64,000 bases of DNA from Marsupella aquatica (Eukaryota; Plantae; Marchantiophyta): positions 7,861,079 to 7,925,078 of the forward strand of contig OZ316898.1 in NCBI GenBank assembly GCA_973895155.1, read 5' to 3'. This document shows, in pieces, positions 3,551 through 42,089 of the stretch (positions are counted from its first letter, which is position 1; each line of letters opens with the position of its first letter). The notes under the pieces are model-generated. The model did no database searches, was not told the origin of the DNA, and saw nothing but the letters and a program-made list of their open reading frames with translations. A program made the translations under genes and the position numbers.

Positions 3551-4199
3551 TAGCAAATGTGCTCGGAAGAGTGTCGAAGCTTGGTGGAGGCAATGCACAA
3601 CGCTGCGCAACCCTAAGCCCTTGCAATGTGCACACAAGGCATGCCAAGAAAAGAGCACATCGAGCATTGCCCTCTCCGTCGATGTTTTTTCAGGAAAAAG
3701 GGCTCCTGTTGGTACGCGAGAACACTTGAGGAGGAAAAACCTAAAGCTGGATGCCTAAACCCCGTAAAAGTAAGGTATTTCTCCAGATGGGGATGGTGGA
3801 TATTGTACGTGGGTCATGAATTAGGTTCTATTCTGACAATCTCTCATATGTCTGGACCCCCCATAAGGCCCTAGGGAAGTTGAGACTAGGTTAATAACAA
3901 TGTAAACCACCCCCCCCCCTCGCCCCCATAAGGCCCTAGGGAAATACCGACTATATAGGGTAATAACAAGGTCCGGACGCCCCCATAAGGTCCTAAGTAG
4001 GGAAGGCAAGGTTAATAACTTATAATGTCGCAACCCCCCCATAAGGTCATGGCTGTTTGTGTAGGTGCCAACAAGAATGTTAAGGACCAATGTTATATAT
4101 AAAAAATCATGCCCGCGATATAAAAGGTCCTTTTGGACCAAGGGAAGACTACATATGAGGCTATGTTGTCTAAGAGTTTTTGAGAGCATTACACCAAAG

Positions 4200-7100
4200 C
4201 ATTAACAAGTGAGCCTTCCCATGACTATATGACCTCCAATATGCCAACATTAATGGCTTCCAATATGACAGCGTGAGTGACCCCACGTTTAGTCCTCAGA
4301 TTGAAGCACCATTTAATTCACAAATGATCCAATGAACTCCCTTGTACCTCCAAAGAGAACCCCCCAATAGCCTTTGAAAAGACCACATTTCCAGTCATTT
4401 GGTACTTCTGACCTCTAGTATGACAACCAAGATTACCCTAATTTGAGGTGTTTTCATTAATGACACACCATGAGGGACCTCTCTAATGACCACATATGCA
4501 GTCAATTGCTCCAAATGACCTCCAACTGACTACCAAAATGACCCTTATTGTAGTCATTAACATTAATGACACACAGTATGTGAAAATGACCCAATGAAGA
4601 GTATACTACCTCTCGGAGTGCCCCTTTACAATTCCTTTGGAATTTAATAGAATATATCCAAAATCCAAATATCGGCACAAACATGACATAGTTATATAGA
4701 AGGACATAGTCTTCCACTAGTATTGCACTATATACCTCTTGGAGAGACAAAAACAATTTTTGTATGCATGCCTTAGGATGGTATGCATGCATGGTGACAC
4801 TTTTGGCAAATCACTCCAAAGTTGTATGACTTGGGAGTGATTTCCCCAAGGTTGCATCATCCCTTAAGTAATTGCAAAAACATGGCTCCAAAGTGCTCAT
4901 GGTGCAACTAGTGGTTGGAGAATAGTGGGTATAGTACCCCGCACCTTGTGGAGAGGTTGCCACCTTCATGTAGAGCCCCATGGCACACTAGGGCCACCTT
5001 AAGCTCCTAGACCCAAAAGGGTCATTTCTGATGGTCCGTAATGACACCATGAGGGACCTCTATAATGACCCCATATGGAGTCATTTGGCACAAATGACTT
5101 CCAAAAGGACTGCCAAAATAACCCTTACTGCAGTCTTTGGCATTAATGACACACTATTCCTCCAAAATGACCCAATGAAGATTACAACACCTACTCACAA
5201 TGCCCCGACACTATTCATATGCAAAATGGAGTATTCCCCATCCAAACACCGGCACAAACATGACACAATTACATCACAAGATGACAACCTTCCATTGGTG
5301 TTGCGCTACTTCTTGGAGAGACAAAAAATGGCTCTATTTGCGCTTGGATACGGTGGTATGCATCCATGGTGACACTTTTGGCAAATCACTCCAAAGTTGT
5401 ATGACTTGGGAGTGATTTCCCCAAGGTGCATCATGCCTTAAGTAAATGCAAAAACATGTGTCCAAAGTGTTCATGGCACAACTACTGGTTGGACGATGAT
5501 GAGTATAGTGTCCCGCACCTAGTGGAGGGGGTTCTCACCTCTATGTGGGGCCCCATGGCACTCTAGGGCCCACCTCCAGCCCCCAGCCCCAAACTGGTCA
5601 TTTGTGCTTCTGCTTAATGATTGCACAAGGGACCCCTCAAATGACCACAAATCCAGTCATTTGACTTATGTGACAGCCCATATGACAGATTTAATGACCC
5701 TACTTGTAGTCATTGGTATTTATGACACCAATTTTTTCAGAAATGACTCAATGAAGATTACACTACCTTCTTGAGTGCCCCATCACTATTCATTTTATAG
5801 AATATTCCCCATCCAAACACCAGCACAAACATGACACAATTACATGGAAGGACAACAGCCTTGCACTACTTCTTGCAGAGACAAAAAAAATGGCTTCATT
5901 TCCTTTAGATAGGATGGTATGCATCAATGGTGACACTTTTGGCAAATCACTCCAAAGTCGTACGACTTGGGAGTGATTTCCCCAAGATTATATCATCCCT
6001 TAAGTAAACACAAAAACATGGCTCCAAACTGCTAATGGTGCAACTAGTGGTTGGAGAATAGTAATTATAGTATTTGACACCTAGTGAAGGGGTTGCGAGC
6101 TCTATGTGGTGCCACATGGCACTCTAGGGCCCACCTCCAGCCCTTAGCTCCAAATTGGTCATTCATGCTTGTCTTCAATGACTGCACTAGAGACCCCTCA
6201 AATGACAACAAGTCCAGTCATTTGAATTATATGACATCCCATATGACCAATTCAATGACCCTACTTGTGGTCATTGGCACTTATGACATGACTTTGTTAA
6301 AAAATGACCCAAAGAAGGTCCTAGTACCGCCAGAGAGAGCCCGCTCTACATTCCTTGCAAAAATGGAATAATCGTATACCTTTAAACATCAGACACATCA
6401 TAGAGGGAAGCACCACTGCCACACCCATTCCATTGGTGTTGCGCTACCTCTTGGAGAGACAAAAAACGGCTTCATTTGCGTTTGGAACAGTGGTATGCAT
6501 CCATGGTGACACTTTTGGCAAATCACTCCAAAGTCATACGACTTGGGAGTGATTTCCCCAAAGGTGCATCATGCCTTAAGTAAACGCAAAAACATGTGTC
6601 CAAGGTGTTTATGTCGCAACTAGTGGTTGGACAATGATGAGTATAGTGTCCCGCACGTAGTGGAGGGGTTCTCACCTCTATGTGGGGCCACATGGCACTC
6701 TAGGGCCCACCTCCAGCCCCTAGCCCCAAACTGGTCATTTGTGCTTTTCCTTAATGACTGCATAAGGGACCCCTCAAATGACCACAAATCCAGTCATTAG
6801 ACTGATATGACTCTCCATATGACAGTTTTAATGACCTTGCTTTTAGTCATTGATATTTATGACGGTCCATTGCTCACATATGACCCAATAAAGGCCCTAG
6901 TACCTCCAAAGAGAGCCCGCTTTAGATTCCTTGCAAGGTTGGAATATTCCTCTTCCCTAAACCCACACCCACACCATACAGGGAAGCACGACTCCCCTGC
7001 CCATTCCATTGGTGCAACACCACCTCTTGGAGAACCCAAAAACAACTTTTATTTGCCTTTGTATGTGATGGTGTGCATGCATGGCAACACTTTTGGCAAA

Positions 7101-10100
7101 TCACTCCAAAGTCGTACGACTTGGGAGTGATTTCCCCAAAGGTGCATCATGCCTTAAGGAAACACAAAAACATGTGTCCAAAGTGTTTATGTCGCAACTA
7201 GTGGTTGGACAATGATGAGTATAGTGTCCCGCACCTCGTGGAGGGGTTCTCACCTCTATGTGGGGCCCCATGGCACTCTAGGGCGCACCTCCAGCCCCTA
7301 GCCCCAAAATGGTCATTTGTGCTTTTCCTTAATGACTGCATGAGGGACCCCTCAAATGACAATAATTCAGGTCATTCCGCTTATATGACATCCAATGTGA
7401 CCATTTTAATGACCTTTCTTGTAGTAATTGGCATTTATGACGGGCCATTGCTCACATATGACCCAATAAAGGCCCTAGTACCTCCAAAGAGAGCCAGCTT
7501 TAGATTCCTTGCAAGGTTGGAATATTCCCAAACCCTAATCCCGCAGCCACACCATGCTAAGAAGCACGACTTCCCTGCCCATTCCATTCGTGCAGCACTA
7601 CCTCTTGGAGAACCAAAAAACAGGTTTTATTTGCCTTTGGATGTGATGGTATACATCCATGGTTGCACTTTTGGCAAATCACTCCAAAGTCGTACGACTT
7701 GGGAGTGATTTCCCCAAAGGTGCATCATGCCTTAAGGAAACACAAAAACATGTGTCCAAAGTGTTTATGTCGCAACTAGTGGTTGGACAATGATGAGTAT
7801 AGTGTCCCGCACCTCGTGGAGGGGTTCTCACCTCTATGTGGGGCCCCATGGCACTCTAGGGCGCACCTCCAGCCCCTAGCCCCAAAATGGTCATTTGTGC
7901 TTTTCCTTAATGACTGCATGAGGGACCCCTCAAATGACAATAATTCAGGTCATTCCGCTTATATGACATCCAATGTGACCATTTTAATGACCTTTCTTGT
8001 AGTAATTGGCATTTATGACGGGCCATTGCTCACATATGACCCAATAAAGGCCCTAGTACCTCCAAAGAGAGCCAGCTTTAGATTCCTTGCAAGGTTGGAA
8101 TATTCCCAAACCCTAATCCCGCAGCCACACCATGCTAAGAAGCACGACTCCCCTGCCCATTCCATTCGTGCAGCACTACCTCTTGGAGAGCCAAAAAACA
8201 GGTTTTATTTGCCTTTGGATGTGATGGTATACATCCATGGTTGCACTTTTGGCAAATCACTCCAAAGTCGTACAACTTGGGAGTGATTTCCCCAAAGGTG
8301 CATCATGCCTTAAGGAAACACAAAAACATGTGTCCAAAGTGTTTATGTCGCAACTAGTGGTTGGACAATGATGAGTATAGTGTCCCGCACCTCGTGGAGG
8401 GGTTCTCACCTCTATGTGGGGCCCCATGGCACTCTAGGGCGCACCTCCAGCCCCTAGCCCCAAAATGGTCATTTGTGCTTTTCCTTAATGACTGCATGAG
8501 GGACCCCTCAAATGACAATAATTCAGGTCATTCCGCTTATATGACATCCAATGTGACCATTTTAATGACCTTTCTTGTAGTAATTGGCATTTATGACGGG
8601 CCATTGCTCACATATGACCCAATAAAGGCCCTAGTACCTCCAAAGAGAGCCAGCTTTAGATTCCTTGCAAGGTTGGAATATTCCCAAACCCTAATCCCGC
8701 AGCCACACCATGCTAAGAAGCACGACTCCCCTGCCCATTCCATTCGTGCAGCACTACCTCTTGGAGAGCCAAAAAACAGGTTTTATTTGCCTTTGGATGT
8801 GATGGTATACATCCATGGTTGCACTTTTGGCAAATCACTCCAAAGTCGTACAACTTGGGAGTGATTTCCCCAAAGGTGCATCATGCCTTAAGGAAACACA
8901 AAAACATGTGTCCAAAGTGTTTATGTCGCAACTAGTGGTTGGACAATGATGAGTATAGTGTCCCGCACCTCGTGGAGGGGTTCTCACCTCTATGTGGGGC
9001 CCCATGGCACTCTAGGGCGCACCTCCAGCCCCTAGCCCCAAAATGGTCATTTGTGCTTTTCCTTAATGACTGCATGAGGGACCCCTCAAATGACAATAAT
9101 TCAGGTCATTCCGCTTATATGACATCCAATGTGACCATTTTAATGACCTTTCTTGTAGTAATTGGCATTTATGACGGGCCATTGCTCACATATGACCCAA
9201 TAAAGGCCCTAGTACCTCCAAAGAGAGCCAGCTTTAGATTCCTTGCAAGGTTGGAATATTCCCAAACCCTAATCCCGCAGCCACACCATGCTAAGAAGCA
9301 CGACTCCCCTGCCCATTCCATTCGTGCAGCACTACCTCTTGGAGAACCAAAAAACAGGTTTTATTTGCCTTTGGATGTGATGGTATACATCCATGGTTGC
9401 ACTTTTGGCAAATCACTCCAAAGTCGTACGACTTGGGAGTGATTTCCCCAAAGGTGCATCATGCCTTAAGGAAACACAAAAACATGTGCCCAAAGTGTTT
9501 ATGTCGCAACTAGTGGTTGGACAATGATGAGTATAGTGTCCCGCACCTAGTGGAGGGGTTCTCACCTCTATGTGGGGCCCATGGCACTCTAGGGCCCACC
9601 TCAAGCCCCTAGCCCCAAAATGGTCATTTGTGCTTTTCCTTAATGACTACATAAGGGACCCCTCAAATGACCACAAATCCAGTCATTAGACTGATATGAC
9701 TCTCCATATGACAATTTTAATGACCCTACTTTTAGTCATTGGCATTTATGACGGGCCATTGCTCACATATGACCCAATAAAGGCCCTAGTACCTCCAAAG
9801 AGAGCTAGCTTTAGATTCCTTGCAAGGTTGGAATATTCCTCTTCCCTAAACCTGCACCCACACCATACTGAGAAGCATGACTCCCCTGCCCATTCCATTG
9901 GGGCAGCACTACCTCTTGGAGAACCAAAAAACAACTTTTATTTGCCTTTGGATGTGATGGTATGCATGCATTTATTTGCAAATTAAAATATTCCCCGTCC
10001 AAACACCGGCACAAACATGACACAATTACAACAAAGCATGACAACCTTCCATTGGTATTGCCCTACTTCTTGGAGAGACAAAAAGGTTTCATTTGCCCCA

Positions 10101-10170
10101 TGGATACGATAGTATGCGCGCATCCATATATGATGACACTTCTGGAAAATCACTCCAAAGGTGTATGACT
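4200..10170. repeat. 578-bp tandem repeat array (about 10 units) inside the CACTA element
   Basis: The anchor acttttggcaaatcactccaaag recurs at about 4799, 5375, 5936, 6511, 7089, 7667, 8245, 8823, 9401 and (degenerate) 10138. Near-identical 167-aa ORF calls start at 7205/7783/8361/8939, an exact 578-bp spacing. Outer units are more diverged. Confidence 0.97.
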
Positions 10171-10249
10171 CTACAATTATGATAGGTGTCTGGAATGACT
10201 ATTGAGTATTTTAATCTTCATATCTCTTGGGTTCTTTAATGACTCTATA

Positions 10250-10760
10250 AGTAGTCATTTATGTAATAAGTCCATAATGACTGTATGTTATTGTAAACAT
10301 TGATATATCCTGATTTTTAGATTGCCCTATATTTAGTCATTTATGCGACAAGTCCATAATGACAGTATGTTGTTGAAAACACCGATATATCCTAATTTCA
10401 AGATTGACTGTGGAGTTAGTCATTTATGAGAGAAGTCCATAATGACGGTATGTTCTTGTAAACACTGATATGTCCTAATTTCAAGATTGACCCTAGAGTT
10501 AGTCATTTATGGCAGAAGTCCATAATGACAATATGTTGTTGTAAACACTGATATATTCTCATTTTCAGATTGACCCTAAATTTTGTCATTTATGAGAGAA
10601 GTCCATAATGACGGTATGTTCTTGTAAACACTAATATGTCCTAATTTCAAGATTGACCCTAGAGTTAGTCATTTATGGCAGAAGTCCATAATGACAATAT
10701 GTTGTTGTAAACACTGATATATTCTCATTTTCAGATTGACCCTAAATTTTGTCATTTAAC
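10250..10760. repeat. ~83-bp tandem subterminal repeat (6-7 units, partly a 166-bp dimer)
   Basis: (a/t)gtcattta recurs at about 10254, 10335, 10418, 10501, 10584, 10667 and 10750. Units alternate gagagaagtcc and ggcagaagtcc variants. Confidence 0.9.
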
Positions 10761-11146
10761 ACCGTTGGTTAAAATGACGATAATACATTTTTTGTCATTT
10801 ATCACCGTTGTCCAAAATGATGCAAATAGATTTTTGGTCATTTCAGTCATTGTCCAGAGTGACTATAATGTTGCTAAACACTGATTTATCATTGTTGTTA
10901 TTAATTGTGTCATTTAAGACATGTGTCTAAATTGACCATTTAGGGAAATTGGGTCATTTTGGTCGCATCAGTCATTATAGACATTATACAAAATGACGAA
11001 AAAATTAACATTTTGTCATTTCAGTCTATTGGTCATTGTGGACAGTCATTCCCCCGTCATTCTTTTTGTGTCATTAAAACTTTTGGTCATTTATTCATCT
11101 CTGTCATTGGGTGATTGGTCATAAAGGGCCCTGTTTTCTTCTAGTG

Positions 11147-12228
11147 TTCAGGCACGAATTCCTGTGCGTCGTTATTTGTATGTGGAGACAGATGAGACAA
11201 CACGGAGGGTCTCATTGCGACATGTGGCTATGTTGGTGGATAGATATCCACAGTTGCTGCCAGTGGATACTGTTCGTGGTTATCAACATGCACTACCTGC
11301 TGATATTTCATTGTTGGGGGCGGATCATCTACATCGTGTTGGCCCCATTGATTTGGTGATTGCTGGTTGGCCATGTCAGGGCCAATCTAGAGCTGGCATT
11401 GGGCATGGACTTCATGATCCACGCTCTACATTGTTTTGGGAGATGTTACGGGTGCTGCGTCATCTCCAGCTACATCAGACACAGTCTCCAGCATACATTT
11501 TGGAGAATGTGTCATTGTTAGGTGATGATCGTAGTCGGATTGTTGCTAGTGTTCACCAGGTGAGGTCTTGGATTGGACCTGCTGTGTTATTGGATGCTGC
11601 ACGTGTGGGTTCTCGTGCACATCGTCCACGCTTGTGGTGGACTAATTTGATCCCATGTGAGGTGCTGAAGCGCGCATTTGACAGCATTCCACGCTCACCA
11701 GCCTTAGTGGTGGATGATATTTTGGATCCAGGGCGTCGTGCACAGGGTGTGACCCAACCTGATAGACCTCCATTGGCAATGGTCAATGCAGTTGGGTGCC
11801 CACGTTGTGCATTACCCACTCTTGTAAGCCACTCTGCTTCATATGCATTCAGAGCAGGTGGCCCTGGACTTGTATGGGACACAGCTCTCCAGCAGTTAGT
11901 GGAGCCTACTGCTGATGAGAGAGAGCGTGCTATGGGATTTTTGACTGGCACCACTGCAGTTGCCTCTGTGTCAGAGGGTTTGCGGCGCCAGGTTCTTGGT
12001 CAAGCAATGGATTCGAATTGTTTGACTTGGATTATCAGCTTGGGAGTAGCTGAACAGTTGCGGATGCGCTCTGCCGGAATTACTGATTGTCCCTTGGTGA
12101 GCTTGTGGTCCACTGAGACAGTATTGACCACAGCTGGGGGCGAGCAGACAGTCCATGGACCTATGACAGGATTGGCAACTGGACAGATTGTTGAGCAGGA
12201 AAGGACTGCTCAATCTACTGCTAAATAG
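11147..12228 (+). pseudogene. C5 DNA (cytosine-5) methyltransferase domain of the Gypsy polyprotein, N-terminally truncated
   Basis: Motif II-like RRYLYVETD, motif IV IDLVIAGWPCQG (catalytic PC), motif V DPRSTLF, motif VI YILENV, motif VIII AHRPRLWWTN, motif IX EPTADERERAMGF, motif X RRQVLGQAM. Motif I (FxGxG) is missing because the CACTA terminus lies at 11146. Same frame as the downstream RT. Confidence 0.88.
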
Positions 12229-12273
12229 CAATCATCGGCTATCTCTTCTACCCTACAAAGAGATATTAGGGAT

Positions 12274-14895
12274 TTGGTGGAGAGTTGGGAACCACAGCTT
12301 GGCCCTAAGTTAACAGGGGAGGAGAGACGTCGCATGCATCGATTCCTGAAGAGTTATTGGAATTGTTTTGCATTCAGCATGAAGGATTTGGGGACATTGA
12401 AGGGCCCTGGTATTCAGATTGAATTGGCTAGTGATGCGCCAATCTTTCGTAGACCATACCGTTATAGTGACATGGAGAGAGCTCTGATTCAAAGCAGAAC
12501 TCAAGATTTGTTGGAGGCTGGATTGGTGGAGATTTCATATGGGGAGTATGCATCTGCCATAGTGATGCCAGCCAAGAAGGATGTGCATGGCAATTACACA
12601 GATAGGCGCATGTGTGGTGATTACAGACCTATTAATCGCCAGACAAAATCTGATCGATATGCCATGCCCACACCTGAGGAGATCTTTGATGCTGTGGGGC
12701 ATGCAAAGGTTTTCAGTTCATTGGATCTGAGGGCAGGGTACCATCAGCTTCCAATTAGGCATGCTGACAGGTCCAAGACAGCATTTTGGGGGATTGATTC
12801 TTATGGCAAAGATCATTTGTATCAGTGGTTATTCTTACCATTTGGGTTGAAGAATGCACCAACTGAGTTCCAGAGAGTCATGGATCGAATCCTTGCAGGT
12901 TTGGATTTTGTCAGATGTTATATTGATGATATTTTGGTCTATTCTTCTACTGTGGAAGAACATCAGCAGCACTTGCAGACTGTGTTGGAGAGATTGAGAG
13001 CACATGGGTTGAAGCTCCATCCTAGCAAGTGTAAGTTCTTCCAAGACCAGATTGAGTATTTGGGCCACACCATATACCCAGGGGGATTGGGTGTACAGCA
13101 GACTAAAGTGGAGGTCATTACATAGATTTCTTGTCCTACTGATGTGAGTAGAGTTCGTGCATTCTTGGGATTGGCGAGCTACTACAGGAGGTATGTTAAA
13201 GGATTTAGCCAACTTGCTAAACCTTTGACCATACTCACTAAGTTGGATCAGGAATGGATTTGGGGTGATGACCAGGAGCATGCCTTTCAGGAGTTGAAGC
13301 AAAGGTTGGCATCATCCCCTATTTTGAGAAGACCCATTTCAGGCAGACCATTTCAGCTACACACTGATTGGAGTGGAGTAGGACTTGGAGCAGTGCTGAC
13401 TCAGAAGGATGATGAGGGGAATGAGTTTGTTGTGGCTTATGCCAGTAGATCAAACAATTCAGCAGAGGCTAAGTATAGCTCTTATGAGGGAGAGTGTTTG
13501 GCAGCAGTGTGGGCTGTTGCACACTTTCGTTGCTACTTGTTTGGTAACCCCTTCACCTTGATCACTGATCATCAGCCTCTTAAGTGGTTAATGGAGTCTG
13601 ACAAGCTTACAGGGAAGCTTGCACGATGGGCATTGTTATTACAGGAGTATGATTTCCAGGTGGTGCATAGGCCTGGAAAAGTGAACTTGGATGCAGATGG
13701 ATTAAGCTGCAATCCATGTACCAGTCAGCAGGATGAGACTGGAGCCAGATGGCATGATAAGTCAGATAAGGAGATGGTGCCAGGATGGCATGCATCTGCC
13801 TTTCTTTGTTGGGTGCCAGCATACAGTGGATCTGTGGACTCTATCTCATTGGATGGAGTGGGTGATGAGTCTTCAGATGTGGATGTTGGTGAGGTAACTT
13901 CTGGACAGCAAGATATTCACAATGATGTGAGAGTGTTGGAATATCTGCGCAATAGTTCTATTGTTGGCAGTGTTGATGCCAAGGAACGTGACAGGGTTCT
14001 ACAGAGAGCCAAGAGGTTTTGATGGGAGGGAAACCATCTTTTGAGAGTATTGCATGATGGTAGGATGTTGGTGGTACCAAAACCATCACAACGAGTACAT
14101 TTGGTGTGACATGCGCACGAGGAGTTGGGTCACTTTGGTGTGAAGCGCACTTACAGCTTGCTGCAGACACAGTATTGGTGGCATGGTATGCACACTCATG
14201 TCCAGCAGTTGATAGCTAAGTGTGTGGTATGTGACAGAGTGAGAGCATCATTTAATGCTCCCACTCCCCAGTTGCACCCGTTACCGATCATGGGTTTGGG
14301 ATATTGTTGGAGTTTGGATTTTGCTGGTCCATTACCTCTTACCCAACGTCATAATCGGTATGTTTTGGTCATGGTGGAGTACTTCTCCAAGTGGATTGAG
14401 CTAGTGGCGTTGCCAGATAAAGCCAGTGGAGGAGTTGCTGCTACATTTTTGGATCGTGTACTCAGTCATTTTGGAGCACCAACTGAGGTGTTGACTGATC
14501 AGGGAACTGAGTTCCGTGGAGAGTTTGAGAGTTTGTGTGAACAAGCTTTGATTGATCATCGCACTACCTCTCGTGATCATCCTGAGGCAGATGGATTAGC
14601 TAAGAGAGTTGTGCAAACTGTGAAGAGAGGATTGCGTAAGTATGACTTGCAGGTTGGTCATCTGGGAGATTGGGATCTCCAGCTACCTTGGTTAGCTATG
14701 GGCTACCGTTTCAGTCGGCAAGCATCACTTGCATCCTTCTCACCCTACTTTTTGCTCTATGGTAGAGAGCCAGATTTGCCAGTAGCTATTCGTCGTGATG
14801 CTGCACCAGTTGTGAACTTGGATGATCCTAATGTTTGGGTCAAGGTGTGTTCAGAGAGAGCACGGGTATTTCAGAGAGATGCCCATGGCTTTTGA
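12274..14895 (+). pseudogene. Gypsy pol: reverse transcriptase, RNase H, integrase (interrupted by in-frame stops)
   Basis: RT: RMCGDYRPIN, SLDLRAGYHQL, LPFGLKNAP, CYIDDIL. RNase H: LHTDWS, YASRS, YEGECLA, ITDHQPL. Integrase: HAHEELGH...CVVC zinc finger, WSLDF, LTDQG, and LAKRVVQ where the catalytic Glu appears mutated to Lys. Stops at 13123, 14020 and 14107; +1 frameshift near 14878. Confidence 0.95.
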
Positions 14896-15352
14896 CAACC
14901 TTGCCATTGCCCAACATCGTGATACTTTGAGGTATGCCACTATTCGTGGAGGAGGTTACCGTGCAAGCATTCGACGATTTCATCCTGGTGATTATGTTTA
15001 TTTGCAGCAGACAGCACCCACGACACTTGATGTGACCGCAGGCTGGACAATCTTACGTGTGCGTGAAGTGTTGCCTTCTGGTGTCCTGATGTTGGAGGGA
15101 CGCGATGGTATGGTTTGGAAGGATCATGTGCGCAACTGTGCACCATGTCACTTTCCCAACATTGATGGTACAGTAGATCCAAGCTTGGCACATGTTTGTG
15201 CTGGCTTGAAATGTATGTTGTGTGGATCTGCTCAGGGAGCAGCTACTATATTGATTTGTGATAAGTGTTCTAGAGGATGGCACATGTCATGTTTGACACC
15301 ACCATTGCAGGTGATTCTTAGTGGATCATGGTTGTGTCCTCAGTGTCGGTGA
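14822..15352 (+). pseudogene. Integrase C-terminal region (FHPGDYVYL) plus PHD finger, frameshifted continuation of pol
   Basis: CMLCGSAQGAATILICDKCSRGWHMSCLTPPLQVILSGSWLCPQC is a complete C4HC3 PHD pattern at the end of the polyprotein. Confidence 0.88.
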
Positions 15353-15516
15353 AGCCGACTAGTTATCATTTGTGTTCTCTTGGCAGATATGGATTGCAGG
15401 TAGGTGATCGATGGGGCTCACTTGCACCCGGCCTCCTGATCTTCACACCTAAAAAGGTGTATATCAACCTTGTAGAACTCATGGCTAGCTAGAGTTAGGG
15501 GACCTTACTCCCAGCT

Positions 15517-15663
15517 AGGGGGGCGATTGTGGGTTTTGGACATGTGTGGACATGAGTTCCACTTGTATTCCATTCTCTTGTATTTGTGATGTGGCAGTGT
15601 GACTATGTCTGGATGTATGTGACAGGCGATGTATGTTGTGTAGCGATATGTATGTGCACGACA
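15517..15663 (+). repeat. Polypurine tract and candidate short 3' LTR (about 136 bp, TG...CA)
   Basis: AGGGGGG at 15517-15523, then TGTGGG... at 15528 ending ...GCACGACA at 15663, after which Harbinger-like coding sequence begins. The partner LTR is not in the window, so boundaries are unconfirmed. Confidence 0.5.
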
Positions 15664-16749
15664 TTGATGACGATGGCAATGCAGGCATACGTGATGCTCC
15701 TTGACTGCTTTCAATCTATTGAGCTTTCCATTGAAAGTCAGGTAACAGTGAATCCTACAAGACCAATTGACGATCTTCTGTCAAAGTATGCAGCAACGCC
15801 TCAATTATTCAAGGATTTAACCAATTTCACTCTTGAGGAGTTCCACGAGCTATGTGCTTTGGTTTGTCCAACAATTGAAATGAACGCACGATCTACAGGC
15901 CAAGGCCATAAGCTCAAGGGTCGGCCTTGCAAAGCTTCACCGGAGCAGAGATTGTTCAGCTTCATTTTATACATGAAACACGGTAATACAATCTACTTCG
16001 ATGCTGCACACTGGAACTGGGCTAAGTCTTCTGTCTGTGATGATGCAATTTATGTTGCATCTTGTGTCAATGAAGCCATAGCGGATGAGATCCGGTGGCG
16101 TACTGTTGAGGAGAGAATTGAACTAGGCCAGGTAATAACAAATTTAATTATCGGGATGTATTGGATTTGTAGATGGAACTCTCTGTAAGATTCGCAGACC
16201 TTTTGAGAATGAGAACCATAGCAAATGGTTCCAAGGTCGAAAAAAAATGTATTGCTTGAACTCTACTGTCCTGGTCGATCATAATGGCTTGTTCATTTAT
16301 GTAGACCCGGGATATCCTGGGAGTTTTCATGATGTTACAATTTTGAAGGACTCTTGGGTGGAGCATAATTGGCTACATCTGTTTGCGAACCAGCCAGGGT
16401 ACTCAAAATTTGTTTTAGGTGACAGGGGTACACATCCATGGAGAAGTTTATAATGAGAAGCTTTAGCAAGGTCGAAATCAGGGCTATGGGTTTAGATCAA
16501 AGTCTGGTGAAAGTCTTCAACAAGATGCACGCCGGATACAGGGTACAGGTGGAATGGGGTATTGGTGGGATGAAGCAGAAGTGGTGAAGGCTGATGAAGA
16601 GATTCGACCTTGTTAAGCCAAAGTTCAGCATCACTTTCAATGCTGCTGCCCTGCTGACCAATTTTCTGCATAGACGAAGAAGGGACATGCGTGTGGAGAT
16701 TGCAGGGCCACGAGAAAAGGGAGACTGGGGATGGGCAGGAGACTATTGA
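15664..16749 (+). pseudogene. PIF/Harbinger DDE transposase (DDE_Tnp_4-type) with frameshifts and a stop
   Basis: N-terminal FKDLTNFTLEEFHELC and EQRLFSFILYMKHG...WAKSSV (HTH-like). Then, across frameshifts, GCIGFVDGTLCKIRRP, GRKKMYCLN, YPGSFHD, VLGDRG and RVQVEWGIGGMKQKW*RL...AAALLTNFL, ending at TGA 16747-16749. Confidence 0.88.
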
Positions 16750-18011
16750 CAGATGTAGTATTGATTTGAGCACTTCACACTTTAAAAGTGAGAGTGGATC
16801 CATGTAAAAGTGAAAGCATCCAGACAAACATCAATTTAAAGTGTTTTTTCTTCACTCTAGTGCATTGGGTTCTCTGCGCTCTTTCTTTTATGCAATGCAA
16901 TTGTTTTTTAGAGTTTTTGATCTTAGCTTGAATCAGGTCTACTTGGAATGTGCGAGAACCAAGAAGGCTATGTAGATTTTTTTCTATTTCTTGAAACTAC
17001 AGTCACAACCTCAAAGCTAGCAATCATGTCATTTATTAACCTGCACACGGATGACATTTGCTAGGTTCTGAACCTGAGGTTTACTAAAGTGTCAGTTCTT
17101 GAGCTAGACAAAAGCAAGCCATGGGCCCAAGCTTTAGTATCTCAGATTAAGATTTTAGCCTTTGTGGTGTCAATACAATCGCAAATGTAAGTCGTCAGCT
17201 GACCGTCTTGTTTGGATGCATGCGCTGGACCCACACCCCTATAGATAAGACACATTAGCCTTTTTGGTGTGAATTGAATAGAATCTCTTTTCAAAAACAG
17301 CCTTTTTTGGATGCCCTAAATCTATATCCTTTTTCGTGAGACATGCATAAGAAGCCAGCCTTTTTGGTTTCAAAACAATAGAATGTCTTGTCTCGATGCC
17401 CTAGATCTACACCCGGTTCGATAACACTTTCCCCTATATAAAAGGAATGAATTCAGTATTCAATTAGGGCAGTGCGGAAAGGAACTACTGCAATTTTTGA
17501 GAGGGAATCGAAGGAGTTAGTAGTAAAAGTGACAGAAATAAAACTTGACTACTTAGTCCTTCATTAAATTTAGAATACTCCACGGTGCTGTCATGCACAC
17601 TACCGTGGAGTGACAAGCAACAAAATGGTACTAAAACACAAGACTGTTCATATCAAAACTCACAAAAGGTGACAGAATCTATGAGCAGCATGTGGTCGAA
17701 ATGTTGTGTTCTTTTCTTGTTGATTGAAAAGCAATTAAAACAACTATTACAGAGCTTGTTCTCATCCATTCAAACCAAAATGCGCTGCCCACAAATGGTG
17801 ACTTAGTTGAAGTAGTCTGTATTTATATCTTTATGATTACATGTGCTACAACCCAAAGGTCGAAAACATCCACAGTTATCGAAACCAACTGAAATAGGTG
17901 ACTGCTACTTCAATTCTAAAGTTCTTCATTGAAACCACTGCCTAAAATTCCAAACTTCGCAACTGAAACAAAATGTTACGTAATACTATGATGTCTCAAA
18001 GTGCATGCAAT

Positions 18012-19031
18012 CTATATAATTCCGAAAGCTTCCTTGCACTTATATTTGAACTCCTCCTCTGTGATAAGATCAAGTGTCCTTTGCTTCTCCAAGAGTGAAA
18101 CCTTAGCCATGGTGCTCCTGGCCTGGGACTCAACTGATCTAGAATCAACTATCTGCTGTCTATCAGATTTCAAGCTCTTGAATTCAGTTAAGATATCAGC
18201 CATGCTTTCGCCAACACGTTTGAGACTCTCTTTCTTAGTGAAGGGCTTGGGCAGAATTGGATCAATGCGAGTTATTGCTGCAGGGGGTCGAGGTGGAGCA
18301 ACAGATCTTGATGCCTCTACATTGGAAACCTGACTAGAATTACTACCATGCATGGCATCCTCCCAGATTTTCAAAACGCTCCTAGCCTTCCATGATGGCG
18401 TTTCCATCAACTTCTTCATGAGTGTTGGGTCTTGCAATGTAGCTCCTGCATCTCCCTCAGGATTATTCACCCCCGACTTCATGTCCTTCACACTGTCTCT
18501 CAAGTGCTCTTTGAGTGTCTCCTCTTCGAATGGTGAATTTGGGAACTCCTTCTTGTAATCCACGTAAACATGACCCCAGACTTTCTTTGGAACAAGCTGC
18601 TTCGTTTTTTGCTTTCTCCCCTAGCTGAATTTTTGGAAATGGTCCCAATACGCCTGCACAAGAGTTCCTATATGATTGTTGTCAACAACTCGTCTTCCCT
18701 TCACTGTCTTCTTTCCCTTTCGCTTCCCATCATCATGACGCTTATGTTGACGCTGCTTGTCTCTGTGCTACACATCCTCAATGTTTGCAGCACTGCTAGA
18801 GCTATCTGAATCAGAACCAGAATCCATCGACATTTGTTTCATTTTGGACCCGTTGTTGCTGCTACTGTCGGAGCTCAGCTCGACCTGCTCAGGGCTATCA
18901 AAAATCACAGGCCCAACTTCTGCTCTCACCGATTCTAGTAAGAAAATTGCTCCATGATCTCCCGCACAATAATCTGTATCTTTAATTGCTTGCCTCTTAA
19001 GATCCTTCAGTTTGTCATTCCAATAATCCAC
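18012..19031 (-). pseudogene. Harbinger second ORF, Myb/SANT(trihelix)-like DNA-binding protein, two in-frame TAG stops
   Basis: Track ORFs 18768..19031 and 18012..18563 share one frame. Read-through gives TLVQAYWDHFQKFS*GRKQKTKQLVPKKVWGHVYVDYKKEFPNSPFEEETLKEHLRD and a coiled-coil C-terminus. It is convergent with the transposase, as is common for Harbingers. An upstream exon may lie in 19063-19450. Confidence 0.6.
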
Positions 19032-21803: not shown

Positions 21804-24233
21804 TCAAGCTTGTTGTCGGATATCTTCTGGTTCGAGTAGCTCCACGAGGGTAACAGTCCGAGCTTGAGTAACTTCCATCAGCTCAGCCTGGCGTGGGGAT
21901 CCTCGAGAGTAGGGTAGGCATCTCAATTGCCTTTCAGGATACATCAGGGGCATTCTTCTCCTTAGATAACATATGTCTATTCGAAGAGCTTCTCTATATA
22001 TCCCAATCACATCATAATTATTGCAAGTAGCAGCATATACTTGGGGATAATGGTATAGAAATTCATCAGAGTTCAGCATCCTGGAATAGAAAGGGTGAAG
22101 CCTCCATTTGACATCTCTGAAATACCGATTGAAGTTGGCCAGAGTTTGAGAGGTGACATTGTTCCAGATTCTCTGTTTCTCAGCTAATGAACTGGTTGAA
22201 ACAAGGGTAACCTTGGGCTCTCGAGGAAGGTAAGCGTTCTGGGGAGAAGTAGATTTCTTACTCTGCATGAGAAAAGAAACCACAAAATCTAGGGCATAAG
22301 CTGCCAAATTTCCAAAATATGCCAGAACTAAATCTGAATCCTCCACCTCCACATCTCCTTGAAGTAGCATCATAGCAAGAATGGGTCGGAAATAGAGAGA
22401 GTCAGTCCAGAACTCATCGAATTGTGCCATCTCCAGTCTGGAAGTTCCAAAACACCTGAGGTCGAAGATATAACTGGCCTCTGTCTTCTTGAGATAGTAG
22501 TATTTCCAAAATTCTCCAACCGGTGGTCTGTTGGCCTGCATAATCTTACAGGTCTCCACATACCTGTGCACTTGGGACTCGGGATGTCTCGGGTATCTAC
22601 TCTCGATGGTGGCATTTCGAGGTGTTTGAGTAGATGAAGTGACAACTGCTACTAAGTTTAGATTGGATCTTAAGGCAGTATCAACATCTTCAAATCCCTG
22701 CCTTGGGGATGACTCAAGAGAATTATCATAAGATCTATAAGTTTCACCATCTGAGGGTGGATCAGAGTCTTCAGGTAGATCTTCTCTGTCAAAAGGGTGC
22801 TCATATTGTGACCGATTGTAGGTGGGTCCTTCTGTGGGTTCATAGTTGGAATCAGGGCTGTAAGGTTGTGAACCTGGGCTAGAAGTAGGACTAGCAGTTG
22901 GACATTGTTGGACCAAGTTGCGGACCACAGATGCTATCTGTCGAGGTTCACACTGTAGTAGTTCTAACAAGTCATCCACAATAGCCACACAGCTGATACT
23001 ATCTGTTACTGGAATGGGCTCACTTGTTTCTAGGGGAGGGGGGTGTACAGTGACAGGAGTACAGATCACAAACTCCATTGGTGCTGGTTCTCTTGGGGGA
23101 GAGGTTATTCTGACAGGGCTTAGCTGATCATGAAATGGTGATCCCAAACTAACAGCCTCCATTCTCAAATTATTAACAGCATCATATAGTCCATCATCAC
23201 TACAACTGAGGAGAGATATCAACTTATCAATAAGCTGCTGATTCGACTCTGCCTTCGAAGGAGTGGACCTGGTGGTCTCATGAGGAGCAGCATCAGTTGG
23301 TGTAGCATCATCGTCTTGTTGATGAATGCTCCTTACTTCTTCAGCTTCTAGTGGATCTACATCCATAGTCCGGCTAGGGAAATTCTCATTACTTATTGAT
23401 TGGCAAACAACTTCCCTGCTATGCATAGGAGAATGTGTAGGGATTTCTAATGAAGTATCCTCCATAGGAACATCAGCATTCTCCTCAACGTTCTGATCAT
23501 TCGAATTCAATGGGGTGACATGTACAATGTCCTCCATAGGAATTTCTTCTTCAATACCCAAGTCAATCAGGAGTAACCCCCTCTCTGTCTCTTCCTCCAG
23601 ATATAAACAGTCATGAGTATAATAGAGCTGAGAGAGATAATTCTGTAAGCAAGTGGTCCTCCCTGCTTCCAAGCTCCTTACTTGATCCTTCATTACATTA
23701 AACAGAAGTAGGGCCCAATTTACTTTTATAGCTCCACTATGAGCAGCTACAATGGTGTTAGCCAAGGCCACAGGACAGAGAGTTGGCTTTTTCGGATGAA
23801 GAATGGGTACCAGAAATTCCATGAGCACTCTCAATTCAGGATAAGTACACTGGGACAAGTTCCAACCATTCTTGGCATTTCGAGTTCCTGAGAAGTATGG
23901 AGCAGATAAGTCCTGCTTCTTGGAATATAACGCCTCTCCTTCTGACGGGCATCCAAAGGCGTAAGCAATTTGCTCAACAGTCCACAGGCTGGGGTGAGCT
24001 CGAATCGTTTGCCTGAATTCAATCGGGATGATAGTCCCCTTCACAAAATCCTGCAAGTAGGAGTCGAGCTCGACATTCCAGGGGATCCTGAGCAAGCGCT
24101 CCAATCCTAAGTGCTGTAAAGAGTCTTGTAAATTAGAAAGACTATCAGGCGCTCGTGGTATGCGAGCTGCCACTACTTTTGAGACTGCTAGAGCTTTAGT
24201 TTGATACTGTTCCTCAGCACCCAGGTTCGCCAT
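21804..24233 (-). CDS. Intronless ~810-aa protein of unknown function, TE accessory-ORF-like
   Basis: Uninterrupted ORF; first ATG at 24233 (MANLGAEEQY). The N-terminal block (LLRIPW...WTVEQIAYAFG...KNGWNLSQC...LMEFLVPILHPKKP...IKVNWALLLF...YLSQLY) resembles, from memory, retrotransposon-associated plant-mobile-domain/Athila-ORF-like proteins. Acidic Pro/Ser-rich middle and a globular-looking C-terminus. Confidence 0.6.
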   Translation of the reverse strand: MANLGAEEQYQTKALAVSKVVAARIPRAPDSLSNLQDSLQHLGLERLLRIPWNVELDSYLQDFVKGTIIPIEFRQTIRAHPSLWTVEQIAYAFGCPSEGEALYSKKQDLSAPYFSGTRNAKNGWNLSQCTYPELRVLMEFLVPILHPKKPTLCPVALANTIVAAHSGAIKVNWALLLFNVMKDQVRSLEAGRTTCLQNYLSQLYYTHDCLYLEEETERGLLLIDLGIEEEIPMEDIVHVTPLNSNDQNVEENADVPMEDTSLEIPTHSPMHSREVVCQSISNENFPSRTMDVDPLEAEEVRSIHQQDDDATPTDAAPHETTRSTPSKAESNQQLIDKLISLLSCSDDGLYDAVNNLRMEAVSLGSPFHDQLSPVRITSPPREPAPMEFVICTPVTVHPPPLETSEPIPVTDSISCVAIVDDLLELLQCEPRQIASVVRNLVQQCPTASPTSSPGSQPYSPDSNYEPTEGPTYNRSQYEHPFDREDLPEDSDPPSDGETYRSYDNSLESSPRQGFEDVDTALRSNLNLVAVVTSSTQTPRNATIESRYPRHPESQVHRYVETCKIMQANRPPVGEFWKYYYLKKTEASYIFDLRCFGTSRLEMAQFDEFWTDSLYFRPILAMMLLQGDVEVEDSDLVLAYFGNLAAYALDFVVSFLMQSKKSTSPQNAYLPREPKVTLVSTSSLAEKQRIWNNVTSQTLANFNRYFRDVKWRLHPFYSRMLNSDEFLYHYPQVYAATCNNYDVIGIYREALRIDICYLRRRMPLMYPERQLRCLPYSRGSPRQAELMEVTQARTVTLVELLEPEDIRQQA

Positions 24234-24394
24234 AGCTGCAACGGTGATTTGCTTGCTGCGAAGGTTGCTTTCGAAGAGAAAGAGCAAGTGAATAGGGGTG
24301 GTGAAAATACAGGAGTGAGCGCCTGAACTCTATGCTTGATTCCTATCAAGGTATGAAGTCCCCAATCCGTTTCTAAGTCCCGTTGCGAAGTTAG

Positions 24395-38915: not shown

Positions 38916-40675
38916 ATTTAGGGAGACGAGTCCCTCCATTGTCATTCAATGCACCTCGATTCTCCCCCATAGTCCACCCGAATACTCTCCATTTTTGTGT
39001 CTCACTTTAGTTTCAGGCCAACCCCATTTTTGGGTCCCGGTTCAATTTTGAGGAGGACACAAATTTTTGAGGAGTTCTAATGTTTGATAGTTTTAACTTA
39101 TTCACAAATAATGTAAAACTATAATATCAATTTTAAAAATATCAATATATTTGTTAATATAAAATATTAAATAATTATAAAATATTAAATGGTAATGAGC
39201 ATGGAGAATTGATGCACAGAAGTAGTGTGTGACCTAGTAGTATTGGAGGTCAGTTGAGACTATGATGTGGCATGTTCAAGGCACACGATAGGCAACTTTT
39301 CTTTTCTTTGATTGAGGGCATGGAAAGGAATGAGGGGGCGGGGGTGTCTAATCGTATTTGAAAATGGAAATGGTAAATGAGATATATATGGGGGTTTCAA
39401 GTAATTTGGAGATAGCAAAAATAATACCTATTTTGTTAATTTCTTGTACCTGCCCATTGTTGTGAGGTGCCAATCATGTTCCTGGTGGGGTAGTTGCTTT
39501 CAGTTTTAGGAAGAATCCAACAAAAGAGGTTAGCGTGAGAAGCCAACAAAAGAGATTAGAAGTCAAAAGGCAAACAATATTAGAGGTGGTGTTCACAGGA
39601 GAAGACAGGCCTTGTGCAACAAGCTGAGAAACCAGTAAGACAAAAGAAAGCTCCTTGAAAAAGGCACAAAAACCAACCCAGCAGAAGGCCCCTATGAAGC
39701 TAGTCCAAAAGTGTGTGGTAGAGAAGACAACAGGGCCAGGATTGAGAAGTGTGCTCCAATAGACAGGTTTTTTAAAGTTTGCAAGGAATTGGTGCAATCA
39801 TGGGTCTTAATTGGTTGAGTGTCTTGACAAATGTGTCAAGCACAGCACCTTTGGTAGACTTGTTTTCCAGGGTAGCCAACTTAGACTATTTCCAACCTTG
39901 TATGGTAGACTGCCATTGGCTTCTAGGTTTTCTATTGATTTGAAAAAAAAATTCATGAATAAAGTTTTGCTTCTTATACAATAAGATGTGTGCTTACCAT
40001 GAATGATTTAGGAGATAAATGGTTTTTTATGTGATCATGTCACTCTCCTCAACTTTTCTGTTGCTGCTATATGGAGCATCCTTGGACCTTCATATCCCCA
40101 AGTCCAATTTGTTTGGACATTATTTTAATTTTTATGCCTGGCTTTGATTGGTGTCTCCTTTGTTATTTTTTCTATCCCCAAAATTACTTGAACCCGTCAT
40201 ATATATTTCATTTACCATTTCCATTTTCAAATACAATTAGACACCCCGCCCCTCTAACTTTCATTCCTTTCCATGCCCTCAATCAAAGAAAAGAAAACTT
40301 GTCTGTCATGTGCCTTGAACACACCACCTCATAGTCTCAACTGACCTCCAATACCACTAGGTCACACACTACTCCCGTCAATTCTCCATACTCATTACCA
40401 TTTAATATTTTATAATTATTTAATATTTTATCTTAAAAAATATATTGATATTTTAAAAATTGATATTATAGTTTTATGTCATTTTGAATAAGTTAAAAAC
40501 GTCAAGCATTAGAACTCCTCAAAAATCTGTGCCCTCCTCAAAACTGAACCGGGATCCAAAAATGGGGCTGGCCTGAAACTGCAGTGAGACACAAAAATGG
40601 AGAGAGTATCCCGGTGGGCTCTGGGAGAAAATAGAGGTGCATTGAATGACAATGCAGGGACTTGTCTCCCTGAAT
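38916..40675. mobile_element. Non-autonomous foldback element A with ~510-bp terminal inverted repeats
   Basis: 38916-39426 is the imperfect reverse complement of about 40162-40675 (atttagggagacgagtccct... / ...agggacttgtctccctgaat). Spacer about 730 bp. Confidence 0.85.
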
Positions 40676-42089
40676 CAAGACACCATTCAAAGAGACGAGT
40701 CCCTGGAACAGTATTAACTGTACCTCGGGACTCCCCCAAAGCCTCCCGGAAGGAGATCCCTGAGTTTTCCCCTTTTTGCACCCGTCAGTTTTCAGGCCAT
40801 GACCACAATGGCTGCCCCTGGCTCCCTCTCAATTAGAGACTTAGTTTCATTCAACTTTCTTATCCCCATTTGTGTAGTGCCTTTTTCCCTTACATCTCTT
40901 TGTGGGAGTGTTAGTTTAAATTTCTTGGACTCCCTGGAGACAATCTTTTGACAGAGCTGACATTTTATTTAAATTTCTTGGACTCCATGGAGGGTTCTCA
41001 GGTATTGTCCCGGGTTTGAAAACAAAACAAAATTGACAGTAGCTGACATTATTTAAATTTCTTGGACTCCATGGAGGGTTCCCGGGTATTGTCCCGGTTT
41101 TGAAAGAAAACAAAACTTGAACTCCATGGAGGCAATCGTTTGACAGTAGCTGACATATTTTGACCCGCTTTGCAAAGTCCGGCCCCAGTCTAGTTTTAGT
41201 CATTGATTTATGAGGGGTTGATTACTAAGTGGAAAATCACCTGAGCTCAAACTCTTGCCACTAAATTCTTCCTCAGTTCAATTTTGTACTCCACGCCTTC
41301 CAGACAGCCCCTTTAAGTTAGTGTATTGAGAAGATTTCAAATTTTACAAGAGGGAATTGCTGAAGTAGATGTTTTGTTTTCAAAACACTAAAGTTACAAA
41401 GTTAGGTACAATTATGAGCTAGGCATGAATGCAGTGGTTACCCATCTGGAAGGCGTGGAATACAATGATGAACTGAGGAAGAATTTAGTGGCAAGAGTTT
41501 GAGCTCAGGTGATTTTCCACTGAATAATCAACCACTCATAAATCAATGACAAACTAGACTGGGGCCGGACTTTGCAAAACGGGTCAAAATATGTCAGCTA
41601 TTGTCAAACTATTGCCTCCATGGAGTTCAAGTTTTTTGGTTTTTTTTCAAATCCGGGACAATACCCGAGAACCCTCCATGGAGTCCAAGAAATTTAAATA
41701 AAATGTCAACTACTGTCAATTTTATTTTTTTCTCAAAACTGAGACAATACCCGAAAACTCTCCATGGAGTCCAAGAAATTTAAATAAAATGTCAGCTACT
41801 GTCAAAAGATTGCCTCCATGGAGTCCAAGAAATTTAAACTAACACTCACACAAAGAGATGCAAAGGAAAAAGGCACTACACAAGTGAGGATAAGGAGGAT
41901 AAGAAAGTTGAATGAAGTTAAGTCTAAATTGAGAGGGAGCCAGGTGCAGCGAATGTGATCATGGCCTGAAAACTAAAGAGATGGGTGCAAAAAGGGGGAA
42001 ACTCAGTGTGCTTCTTCCGGTAGGCTGTGGGAGAGTCTCGAGGTACAGTTAATGCTCTTCCAGGGACTCGTCTCTTTGAATGTGTCTTG
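40676..42089. mobile_element. Non-autonomous foldback element B with ~630-bp terminal inverted repeats containing internal tandem subrepeats
   Basis: 40676-41303 pairs with about 41446-42089; spacer about 140 bp. Each arm has 3-4 copies of tttaaatttcttggactccatggag and tgacagtagctgaca. Confidence 0.88.

Follow-up and report, generated by a model that had tools for sequence, protein, structure and literature searches.

The stretch analysed here (64,000 nucleotides, hereinafter the window) spans positions 7,861,079 to 7,925,078 of the forward strand of contig OZ316898.1 in the Marsupella aquatica assembly GCA_973895155.1 and includes, on the plus strand, a decayed copy of a Gypsy retrotransposon that encodes a DNMT3-like C5 DNA methyltransferase (DNMT) and a terminal PHD finger. 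The DNMT motifs GWPCQG (11365–11382), ENV (11503–11511), HRPRLWWTN (11620–11646) and LGQAMD (11995–12012) all lie in frame +1, together with the reverse transcriptase (RT), RNase H (RH) and integrase (INT), as the original prediction had it, and a Pfam scan recovers in this frame DNA_methylase (E 1.5e-11), RVT_1 (E 1.6e-35), RT_RNaseH (E 4.4e-38), Integrase_H2C2 (E 2.2e-14) and rve (E 4.3e-14), so that the putative methyltransferase segment does match a C5 methyltransferase profile. The PHD finger (PF00628, E 1.5e-10 to 1.9e-10) is found in frame +2, likewise as predicted, one frameshift beyond the integrase. The predicted left edge of the element, at 11147, also holds, but the right end lies at 15663, beyond the 15352 originally given.

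From left to right, the copy begins with the 3' remnant of the first open reading frame (ORF1; 11147–12225), which in relatives encodes Gag, protease and DNMT and here retains the DNMT3-like domain (PF00145, about 11152–12084, motifs II–X) followed by a linker. Motif I is absent because the element is cut at 11147. The remnant is 86% identical to the protein P0001, which extends 5' through motif I and the protease and ends where the first window ORF ends, and contigs of the public run X2 extend past 11147 in the 5' direction with sequence of the motif I type; Gag and protease were found nowhere in the 64-kb window. ORF1 is closed by the stop TAG followed by CAA TCA (12226–12234), the subject of the comparison below. 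Next come the linker and RT (12229–13122, PF00078), RNase H with a spacer (13126–14019, PF17917), the integrase zinc finger and core (14110–14872, PF17921 and PF00665), and the predicted beta-barrel C-terminus of the integrase with the C4HC3 PHD finger (14885–15352, the finger at about 15212–15346; model pLDDT 71.7). The 3' untranslated region (UTR; 15353–15526) contains motifs conserved across subfamilies (71% match to the moss-type UTR) and ends with a polypurine tract (15517–15526), and the 136-bp terminal repeat B (TG...CA, 15528–15663), homologous to the B repeat of relatives, forms the right end.

The window copy is dead: it is cut at 11147 and carries three stops of its own, a 2-nt deletion and a Glu to Lys replacement in the integrase. 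The lost Glu belongs to the DDE catalytic set, with ADGLAKRV in the window copy and A[D/N]GL[A/S]ER[V/I] in all five relatives checked. Contigs from public runs carry two extra bases at 14872, that is, the frameshift before the PHD finger is a 2-nt loss in this copy. Four in-frame stops interrupt the copy, at 12226, 13123–13125, 14020 and 14107, and the ORFs they delimit had been regarded as separated only by point stops in need of repair. For the last three this view is borne out, given that relatives have sense codons at the corresponding positions (33/33, 24/27 and 25/27, respectively), which marks these stops as private. By the same comparison, the stop at 12226 is a conserved feature of the family rather than decay. 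The position does not appear among the 40 listed differences between public-run contigs and the window copy, with 670 more lying beyond the listing.

In relatives, a single frame encompasses Gag-protease-DNMT, a stop, and RT-RNase H-integrase-PHD, and the intact-looking ORF1 proteins of close relatives end about 65–160 residues past motif X. We surveyed this stop in 45 loci with a preserved RT N-terminus, of which three, with an RT-RH-DNMT layout, were set aside. In 32 of the remaining 42, a CAR codon directly follows the first in-frame stop upstream of RT; four more have the CAR site behind a private stop, in two the site is decayed or out of frame, in L028 and L058 it is ambiguous, and L056 and L057 have no stop. 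Several of these loci are near-duplicates, so that the subfamily is the fair unit of comparison. Across the six subfamilies, the contexts are TAG CAA TCA in the window copy, in L031 and in L052; TAG CAA CCA or CTA in L006/L041; TAG CAG TTA in L029/L030; and TAG or TAA followed by CAA CCC in the Sphagnum-like L002 group. Thus, CAR is present in all six and the full CAR-YYA in five, compared to a background, after any stop triplet, of 3.0% for CAR and 0.22% for CARYYA, and all four YYA codons are represented if L041 is counted beside L006. The hexamer after the stop is 74% identical between subfamilies, against 43% and 37% for its flanks, and synonymous sites are near saturation among the five subfamilies compared. 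Linker lengths vary between subfamilies, and the frame is kept. The first ATG after the stop is at codon 3, 14, 36 or 48, or is missing from 79 codons, such that no ATG is conserved. L029 consists of an ATG and 1359 codons, TAG CAG TTA, and 1047 further codons (2407 codons with a single internal stop), and in L031 the stretch running from the protease through the PHD, 1732 codons, contains one stop. From this comparison, the stop at the DNMT/RT boundary is probably a programmed site, and its conservation assigns the DNMT to the Gag-protease ORF rather than simply to Pol.

Tobacco mosaic virus (TMV) has the same arrangement, with two ORFs in one frame and UAG plus CAR-YYA between them; there, CAR-YYA is reported as the signal required for readthrough, and readthrough of CAR-YYA contexts in plant cells has been measured at 11–32% (PMC2754532). 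Among retroelements, SIRE1 is described as using stop suppression to express an env-like protein, in contrast to the present family, in which the stop separates Gag-protease-DNMT from RT-RH-INT-PHD, and murine leukemia virus (MuLV) is described as suppressing the stop after gag with the aid of a pseudoknot (PMC2194720).

The DNMT domain of the family is intronless and unrearranged, motif I being missing only in the cut window copy. Of 98 relatives, 95 retain the catalytic Cys, all have the motif VI Glu and Asn, and 95 and 96 have the first and second of the two motif VIII arginines, respectively. The domain is under purifying selection, with dN/dS of 0.09–0.22 between subfamilies (rough values, dS being near saturation); in two pairs of recent decayed copies, dN/dS is 0.43–0.48. 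DNMT3A provides the best PDB sequence matches of the window DNMT and, in a profile search of PDB (E 2e-19), ranks ahead of DRM (E 5e-10) and HaeIII (E 5e-8); the predicted structure of the complete L006 domain (pLDDT 82.8) has DNMT3A/B as the top Foldseek matches, so that the modelled fold is DNMT3-like. The window DNMT is 47% identical over 260 aa (E 6e-62) to the Klebsormidium nitens protein KFL_009030040 (P0290). The latter has EHV instead of ENV in motif VI, a change that might bear on the reported inactivity of the KnitGypsy DNMT if similar copies were assayed.

The PHD finger follows the beta barrel of the integrase in the predicted structure and is in frame with the integrase in intact relatives, including K. 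nitens KFL_005000010. The best sequence and fold matches are the fingers of CHD4, DPF3, ATXR5, KDM5, BHC80, UHRF1 and BAZ2, several of which have been solved with unmodified H3. The residue two positions before the PHD His is Gly in 77 of 82 sequences, Ala in three and Pro in two, and never the Trp that occupies this position in readers with an H3K4me3 cage. It is reasonable to propose on these grounds that the finger reads H3 unmethylated at K4.

The termini of these elements are split. In 10 loci with nine distinct flanks, the element opens with repeat A, which is about 340 bp long and has a TATA-like box; B never precedes A in these nine 5' flanks, and complete elements have no upstream copy of B. 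L026 has the structure A-coding-B-A-B and the 3' end of L045 is B-A-B, L018 and L053 have the shorter structure A-coding-B, and the window copy ends in B, with no second copy of this repeat within the window; of the loose ends of public-run contigs, 31 fall behind 15663 and 19 before 15526. Canonical identical 5' and 3' long terminal repeats (LTRs), such as those of Phygy, Selgy and the REXdb chromoviruses, are not found in the family, and reading the L026 repeat pair as a canonical LTR or a nested element was rejected, given that A opens the element in those 10 loci. All three complete copies are flanked by 4-bp target duplications (TACA, ATTA and TCTC). The B/A junction is GACA-AT-TGTC, GACA-GT-TGTC or GACA-GC-TGTC in all four loci that show it, L029 and L031 among them; the A/B2 junction differs between L026 and L045. 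We infer that reverse transcription yields B-A-coding-B-A and that the integrase acts at the internal palindrome. A-coding-B would then arise when both junctions are cut, or when a circle with one repeat is cut, and the replication-competent A-coding-B-A-B would come from a single cut of a two-repeat circle. Recombination between B repeats after insertion explains the short A-coding-B form equally well.

Several side observations concern these noncoding parts. Some 30 nt downstream of the TATA-like box, L004, L010, L036 and L053 have a 12-nt segment complementary to the sequence following A, resembling Tf1-like self-priming; within single copies, only L053 of the five testable ones beat shuffled sequences (0 of 300), and the segment is deleted in several copies, so that self-priming in repeat A is a lead only. 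The stop-less relative L056 (12073 nt, 67% GC) is a circularly permuted contig that represents either a circle or collapsed copies; its PHD is followed by a GTCA-GC-TGTC junction. In the 3' UTR (15405–15526 in the window), the window copy, L018, L029 and L031 share two motifs that are conserved despite the divergence of the subfamilies, namely, a small hairpin that follows GATGGGGC and, directly before the polypurine tract, a stem that ends with CAGCTAG; packaging or recoding elements are possible readings of both. An Rfam scan of window positions 10000–17000 gave no match, and a tRNA search of the window found none.

The DNMT search retrieved at least 100 proteins, with named matches in Marchantia, Calypogeia, Sphagnum, Closterium and Haematococcus, and the integrase search at least 117, adding Riccia, Tetrabaena and K. 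nitens; a Coleochaete scutata transcript encodes RT-RH-INT-PHD, and a profile search returned 500 clusters (50% identity, E <= 1e-30), of which 150 are listed. In two public runs, 13,770 and 6,081 contigs map to the element, spread along its whole length. Hornworts, lycophytes, ferns and seed plants are missing from the named proteins among the 100 and 117 matches listed, which is weak evidence of absence, and a scan of viral contigs found no relative. In Marchantia polymorpha, at least five full-length Gag-protease-DNMT ORFs (Mp_4g09160, Mp_Vg00370, Mp_Vg00540, Mp_5g06330 and Mp_5g06860) are annotated as hypothetical host genes; two of these, Mp_Vg00370 (P0232) and Mp_Vg00540 (P0233), are located on the male V chromosome.

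Three layouts are seen. ORF1 ends after the DNMT in the bryophytes and in the L029/L031 group; DNMT-RT-RH-INT(-PHD) forms one ORF in the Klebsormidium gene model, Closterium, P0039 and L056; and the DNMT lies between RNase H and integrase (RT-RH-DNMT-INT-PHD) in Haematococcus and its kin. In the trees, which are quick searches with the host DNMT3 outgroup omitted and deep nodes left open, the window copy groups with Calypogeia, Marchantia and Sphagnum-type copies (support 100 for DNMT and 98 for RT), the 22 DNMT sequences of the first layout, two of them spliced gene models, form one clade (support 93, unstarred), and the Haematococcus layout is a separate clade (support 97 and 100). As judged from these matches, liverworts and peat mosses have the family in abundance, and its kinship with KnitGypsy-Dnmt3 of Klebsormidium makes it an extension of a known kind of element. 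The original prediction of a land-plant lineage is right in that this is a real, high-copy family, with the DNMT beside RT in dozens of loci and not in the window copy alone, but the lineage is not an embryophyte one as such: it recurs in Klebsormidium, Closterium and Coleochaete, and in the clade that includes Haematococcus the DNMT sits between RNase H and integrase. The coupling of a chromatin writer to a histone reader stands as far as both the DNMT3-like domain and the PHD finger are conserved; such pairing is known in principle, from the PHD finger of Gypsy-7a and the DNMT with chromodomain of EpiLTRs, and, with the PHD on the integrase and the DNMT before the stop, the two need not act as a single writer-reader unit.

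The closest known system is KnitGypsy-Dnmt3 of K. nitens, described with Gypsy domains, an unrearranged DNMT3-type domain under purifying selection and DIRS-like A-coding-B-A-B repeats (PMC5890265). The K. nitens protein KFL_009030040, which by name and domains appears to be a published copy, has the order protease-DNMT-RT-RH-INT, with the DNMT in the same slot as in the present family, and KFL_005000010 combines integrase and PHD as in the liverwort elements. The Gypsy order PR-RT-RH-INT (PR, protease) is also shared, with RT-RH-INT in the window and the protease upstream in relatives. However, the DNMT of the algal element is described inside the Pol ORF (PMC5890265), whereas in liverworts and mosses it closes the Gag-protease ORF, ahead of the conserved CARYYA stop, and in the window's clade it is in the frame of RT and RNase H but separated from them by this stop. 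The family is therefore a variant of KnitGypsy-Dnmt3 and not a plain member. The term 'PHD' is absent from the main text of PMC5890265, and neither 'PHD' nor 'readthrough' occurs in its three readable supplements.

Other systems are more distant. EpiLTRs of Cymbomonas and Euglena are likewise LTR elements with a DNA methyltransferase and a chromatin reader but, as described, differ in a DNMT that is sister to DNMT4, a DAM methylase and a chromodomain, and the paper sets them apart from the streptophyte Gypsy-DNMT3 elements (bioRxiv 10.64898/2026.05.21.726589); scans of the window and of a set of relatives gave no match to a DAM methylase or a chromodomain. Gypsy-7a_cRei of Chlamydomonas and the chromoviruses also have a histone reader on the Gypsy polyprotein, with a proposed role in steering insertion; for Gypsy-7a no DNMT is listed and the LTRs are canonical, and in chromoviruses the chromodomain holds the slot that the PHD holds in the liverwort family (PMC9940879; bioRxiv 10.1101/2021.11.30.470311). 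SymbioDIRS-Dnmt3 has a retrotransposon DNMT3, reported to perform de novo CG methylation in yeast, and split direct repeats, but is a dinoflagellate tyrosine-recombinase element that captured its DNMT independently (PMC5890265), in contrast to the DDE integrase and 4-bp duplications found here. In a literature search covering titles and the beginnings of abstracts, the element in land plants, its readthrough and its target duplications are undescribed, although relevant material may exist in subscription papers, Repbase, theses and further supplements. The word 'streptophytes' is used loosely in two later papers (one being bioRxiv 10.64898/2026.05.21.726589), and a Marchantia methylome paper counts five DNA methyltransferases, with element-borne ORFs going unmentioned in the passages available.

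The account that we favor, with moderate confidence, combines a Gag-linked DNMT3, a leaky UAG-CARYYA stop, DNMT made at Gag level and cDNA methylated in the particle. It is quite likely, from the conserved stop context, that translation usually ends after the DNMT, with a minority of ribosomes continuing into RT and the integrase-PHD, as in TMV, SIRE1 and MuLV; every Gag would then carry a DNMT, and RT and integrase-PHD would be made only upon readthrough, so that, given the stop between them, the DNMT is likely to be in excess over RT and integrase. We lean slightly toward the next step, in which the protease would free many DNMT copies in the particle, cytosines of the cDNA (probably in CG) would be methylated before integration, and the new copy would be pre-marked. 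The chances are about even that the integrase-borne PHD, which lacks the Trp cage, would bind H3 unmethylated at K4 and bias insertion away from active genes. We are equally divided on whether the integrase would join host DNA at the internal palindrome GACA-NN-TGTC between B and A instead of at the cDNA tips, which would yield A-coding-B and A-coding-B-A-B insertions with 4-bp duplications. That every part holds together, that is, a large, old bryophyte Gypsy lineage with TMV-type readthrough, an active Gag-level DNMT3, copies born methylated, PHD guidance, a palindrome-cutting integrase resembling a circle-junction transposase and Marchantia ORF1s acting as a source of de novo methylation, is doubtful.

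Several observations weigh against this account in one part or another. The stop is missing from L056/L057, P0039, P0264 and the Klebsormidium gene model P0290, and because such relatives exist, the family as a whole can do without it; among them, P0264 even sits inside the RT clade of the stop-bearing elements. The stop-bearing DNMT clade has a support of 93, unstarred. In a column-wise tblastn comparison, 19 of 20 sequences have sense codons at 12226, which we attribute to misalignment of the divergent linker, given that the stop reappears once the comparison is anchored on RT. In the Sphagnum-like subfamily, the largest one, the stop is often TAA and is followed by CAA CCC, with an in-frame ATG three codons on. 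This CAA CCC ATG context also suits a different route to Pol, in which the stop is conserved but crossed by splicing, re-initiation or an internal promoter, with the DNMT still linked to Gag. Some Marchantia gene models (the predictions P0006, P0007 and P0012) do splice across the region, the Coleochaete transcript has an RT-RH-INT-PHD ORF with its own Met, and the gag stop context of Candida Tca2, as reported, did not direct readthrough in yeast, a precedent for such a route (PMC2194720). Set against this are the single stop with the frame kept across linkers of several lengths, the hexamer that keeps a degenerate CAR-YYA while the encoded residues vary, and the two of six subfamilies with no ATG within 79 codons; we regard another route to Pol as quite improbable.

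The fate of the methyltransferase admits a second departure from the favored account, namely, that the DNMT methylates DNA at the insertion site, in other copies or in host chromatin, or is a non-catalytic, nucleic-acid-binding part of Gag. The KnitGypsy DNMT was inactive in yeast, a result its authors call inconclusive (PMC5890265), the motif VI of P0290 is the aberrant EHV noted above, and a Gag-level amount of DNMT could serve nuclear roles too. The CpG depletion of the element (0.36, compared to 0.53 for the part of the window beyond 16800) gives little guidance, given that host methylation explains it equally well and that CpG/CHG depletion does not tell self-methylation from host methylation. 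The near-invariant catalytic Cys, Glu and Arg in the 98 relatives speak against a pseudo-enzyme, and the DNMT domain has no targeting module of its own, the PHD being at the far end of the readthrough product; we consider these alternatives unlikely, if less readily dismissed. The reading of the PHD is itself weakened by the general absence, in the family, of the acidic residue before Cys1 that BHC80 and AIRE use. Finally, the window copy alone, truncated and stop-ridden as it is, might suggest that a piece of a host DNMT3 came to lie beside a Gypsy pol by accident, or that the contig is a contaminant of algal origin. Both readings are refuted by the same domain order in dozens of loci and in named bryophyte proteins, by the thousands of public-run contigs along the whole element, and by the host genes of the contig. 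An alpha/beta hydrolase gene (57682–58506) is 83% identical to a Calypogeia fissa protein, compared to 50–66% for the other 119 listed matches, and an XTH gene lies near 31.9–32.5 kb, so that the contig is that of a land plant, with a leafy liverwort as the likely host.

The surroundings of the copy are rich in other mobile elements. On the left, the retrotransposon is abutted and truncated by the end of an unrelated repeat-rich element (11126–11146, minus strand, starting with CACTAG and recognized by motif density). This element, which we take to be CACTA-like, extends over 4100–11146, with nine 578-bp tandem units, 83-bp units and an inverted CACTAG ending at 11146; its subterminal motif GTCAT/ATGAC reaches 17–32 per kb there, compared to about 2 per kb elsewhere, and its other end was not found within the window. 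Directly right of repeat B is a decayed PIF/Harbinger-type transposase (15664–16750, plus strand; DDE_Tnp_4, E 3e-14), and a 202-aa ORF on the minus strand (18012–18620) may be its partner gene. An 841-aa ORF on the minus strand (21804–24329), with no Pfam match at E 0.01, is possibly a mobile-element accessory gene, and two neighboring large foldback structures with arms 87–94% complementary occupy 38916–42082.

The function of retrotransposon-encoded DNMTs has been unsettled since 2018, and the hosts known so far do not lend themselves to manipulation. The abundance of the family in bryophytes, along with the full-length ORF1s of Marchantia, makes the question testable in a genetic model. 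LTR-finding pipelines that need two matching LTRs, as the one described in PMC6317226 does, would miss these elements with their split termini, and 'repairing' the stop between DNMT and RT, or calling the copies that carry it pseudogenes, misreads them. A conserved leaky stop at this position predicts that the DNMT is needed in structural rather than catalytic amounts, which favors action inside the particle. If this is true, the full-length ORF1s of Marchantia, two of them on the male V chromosome, could be an unrecognized source of de novo methylation.

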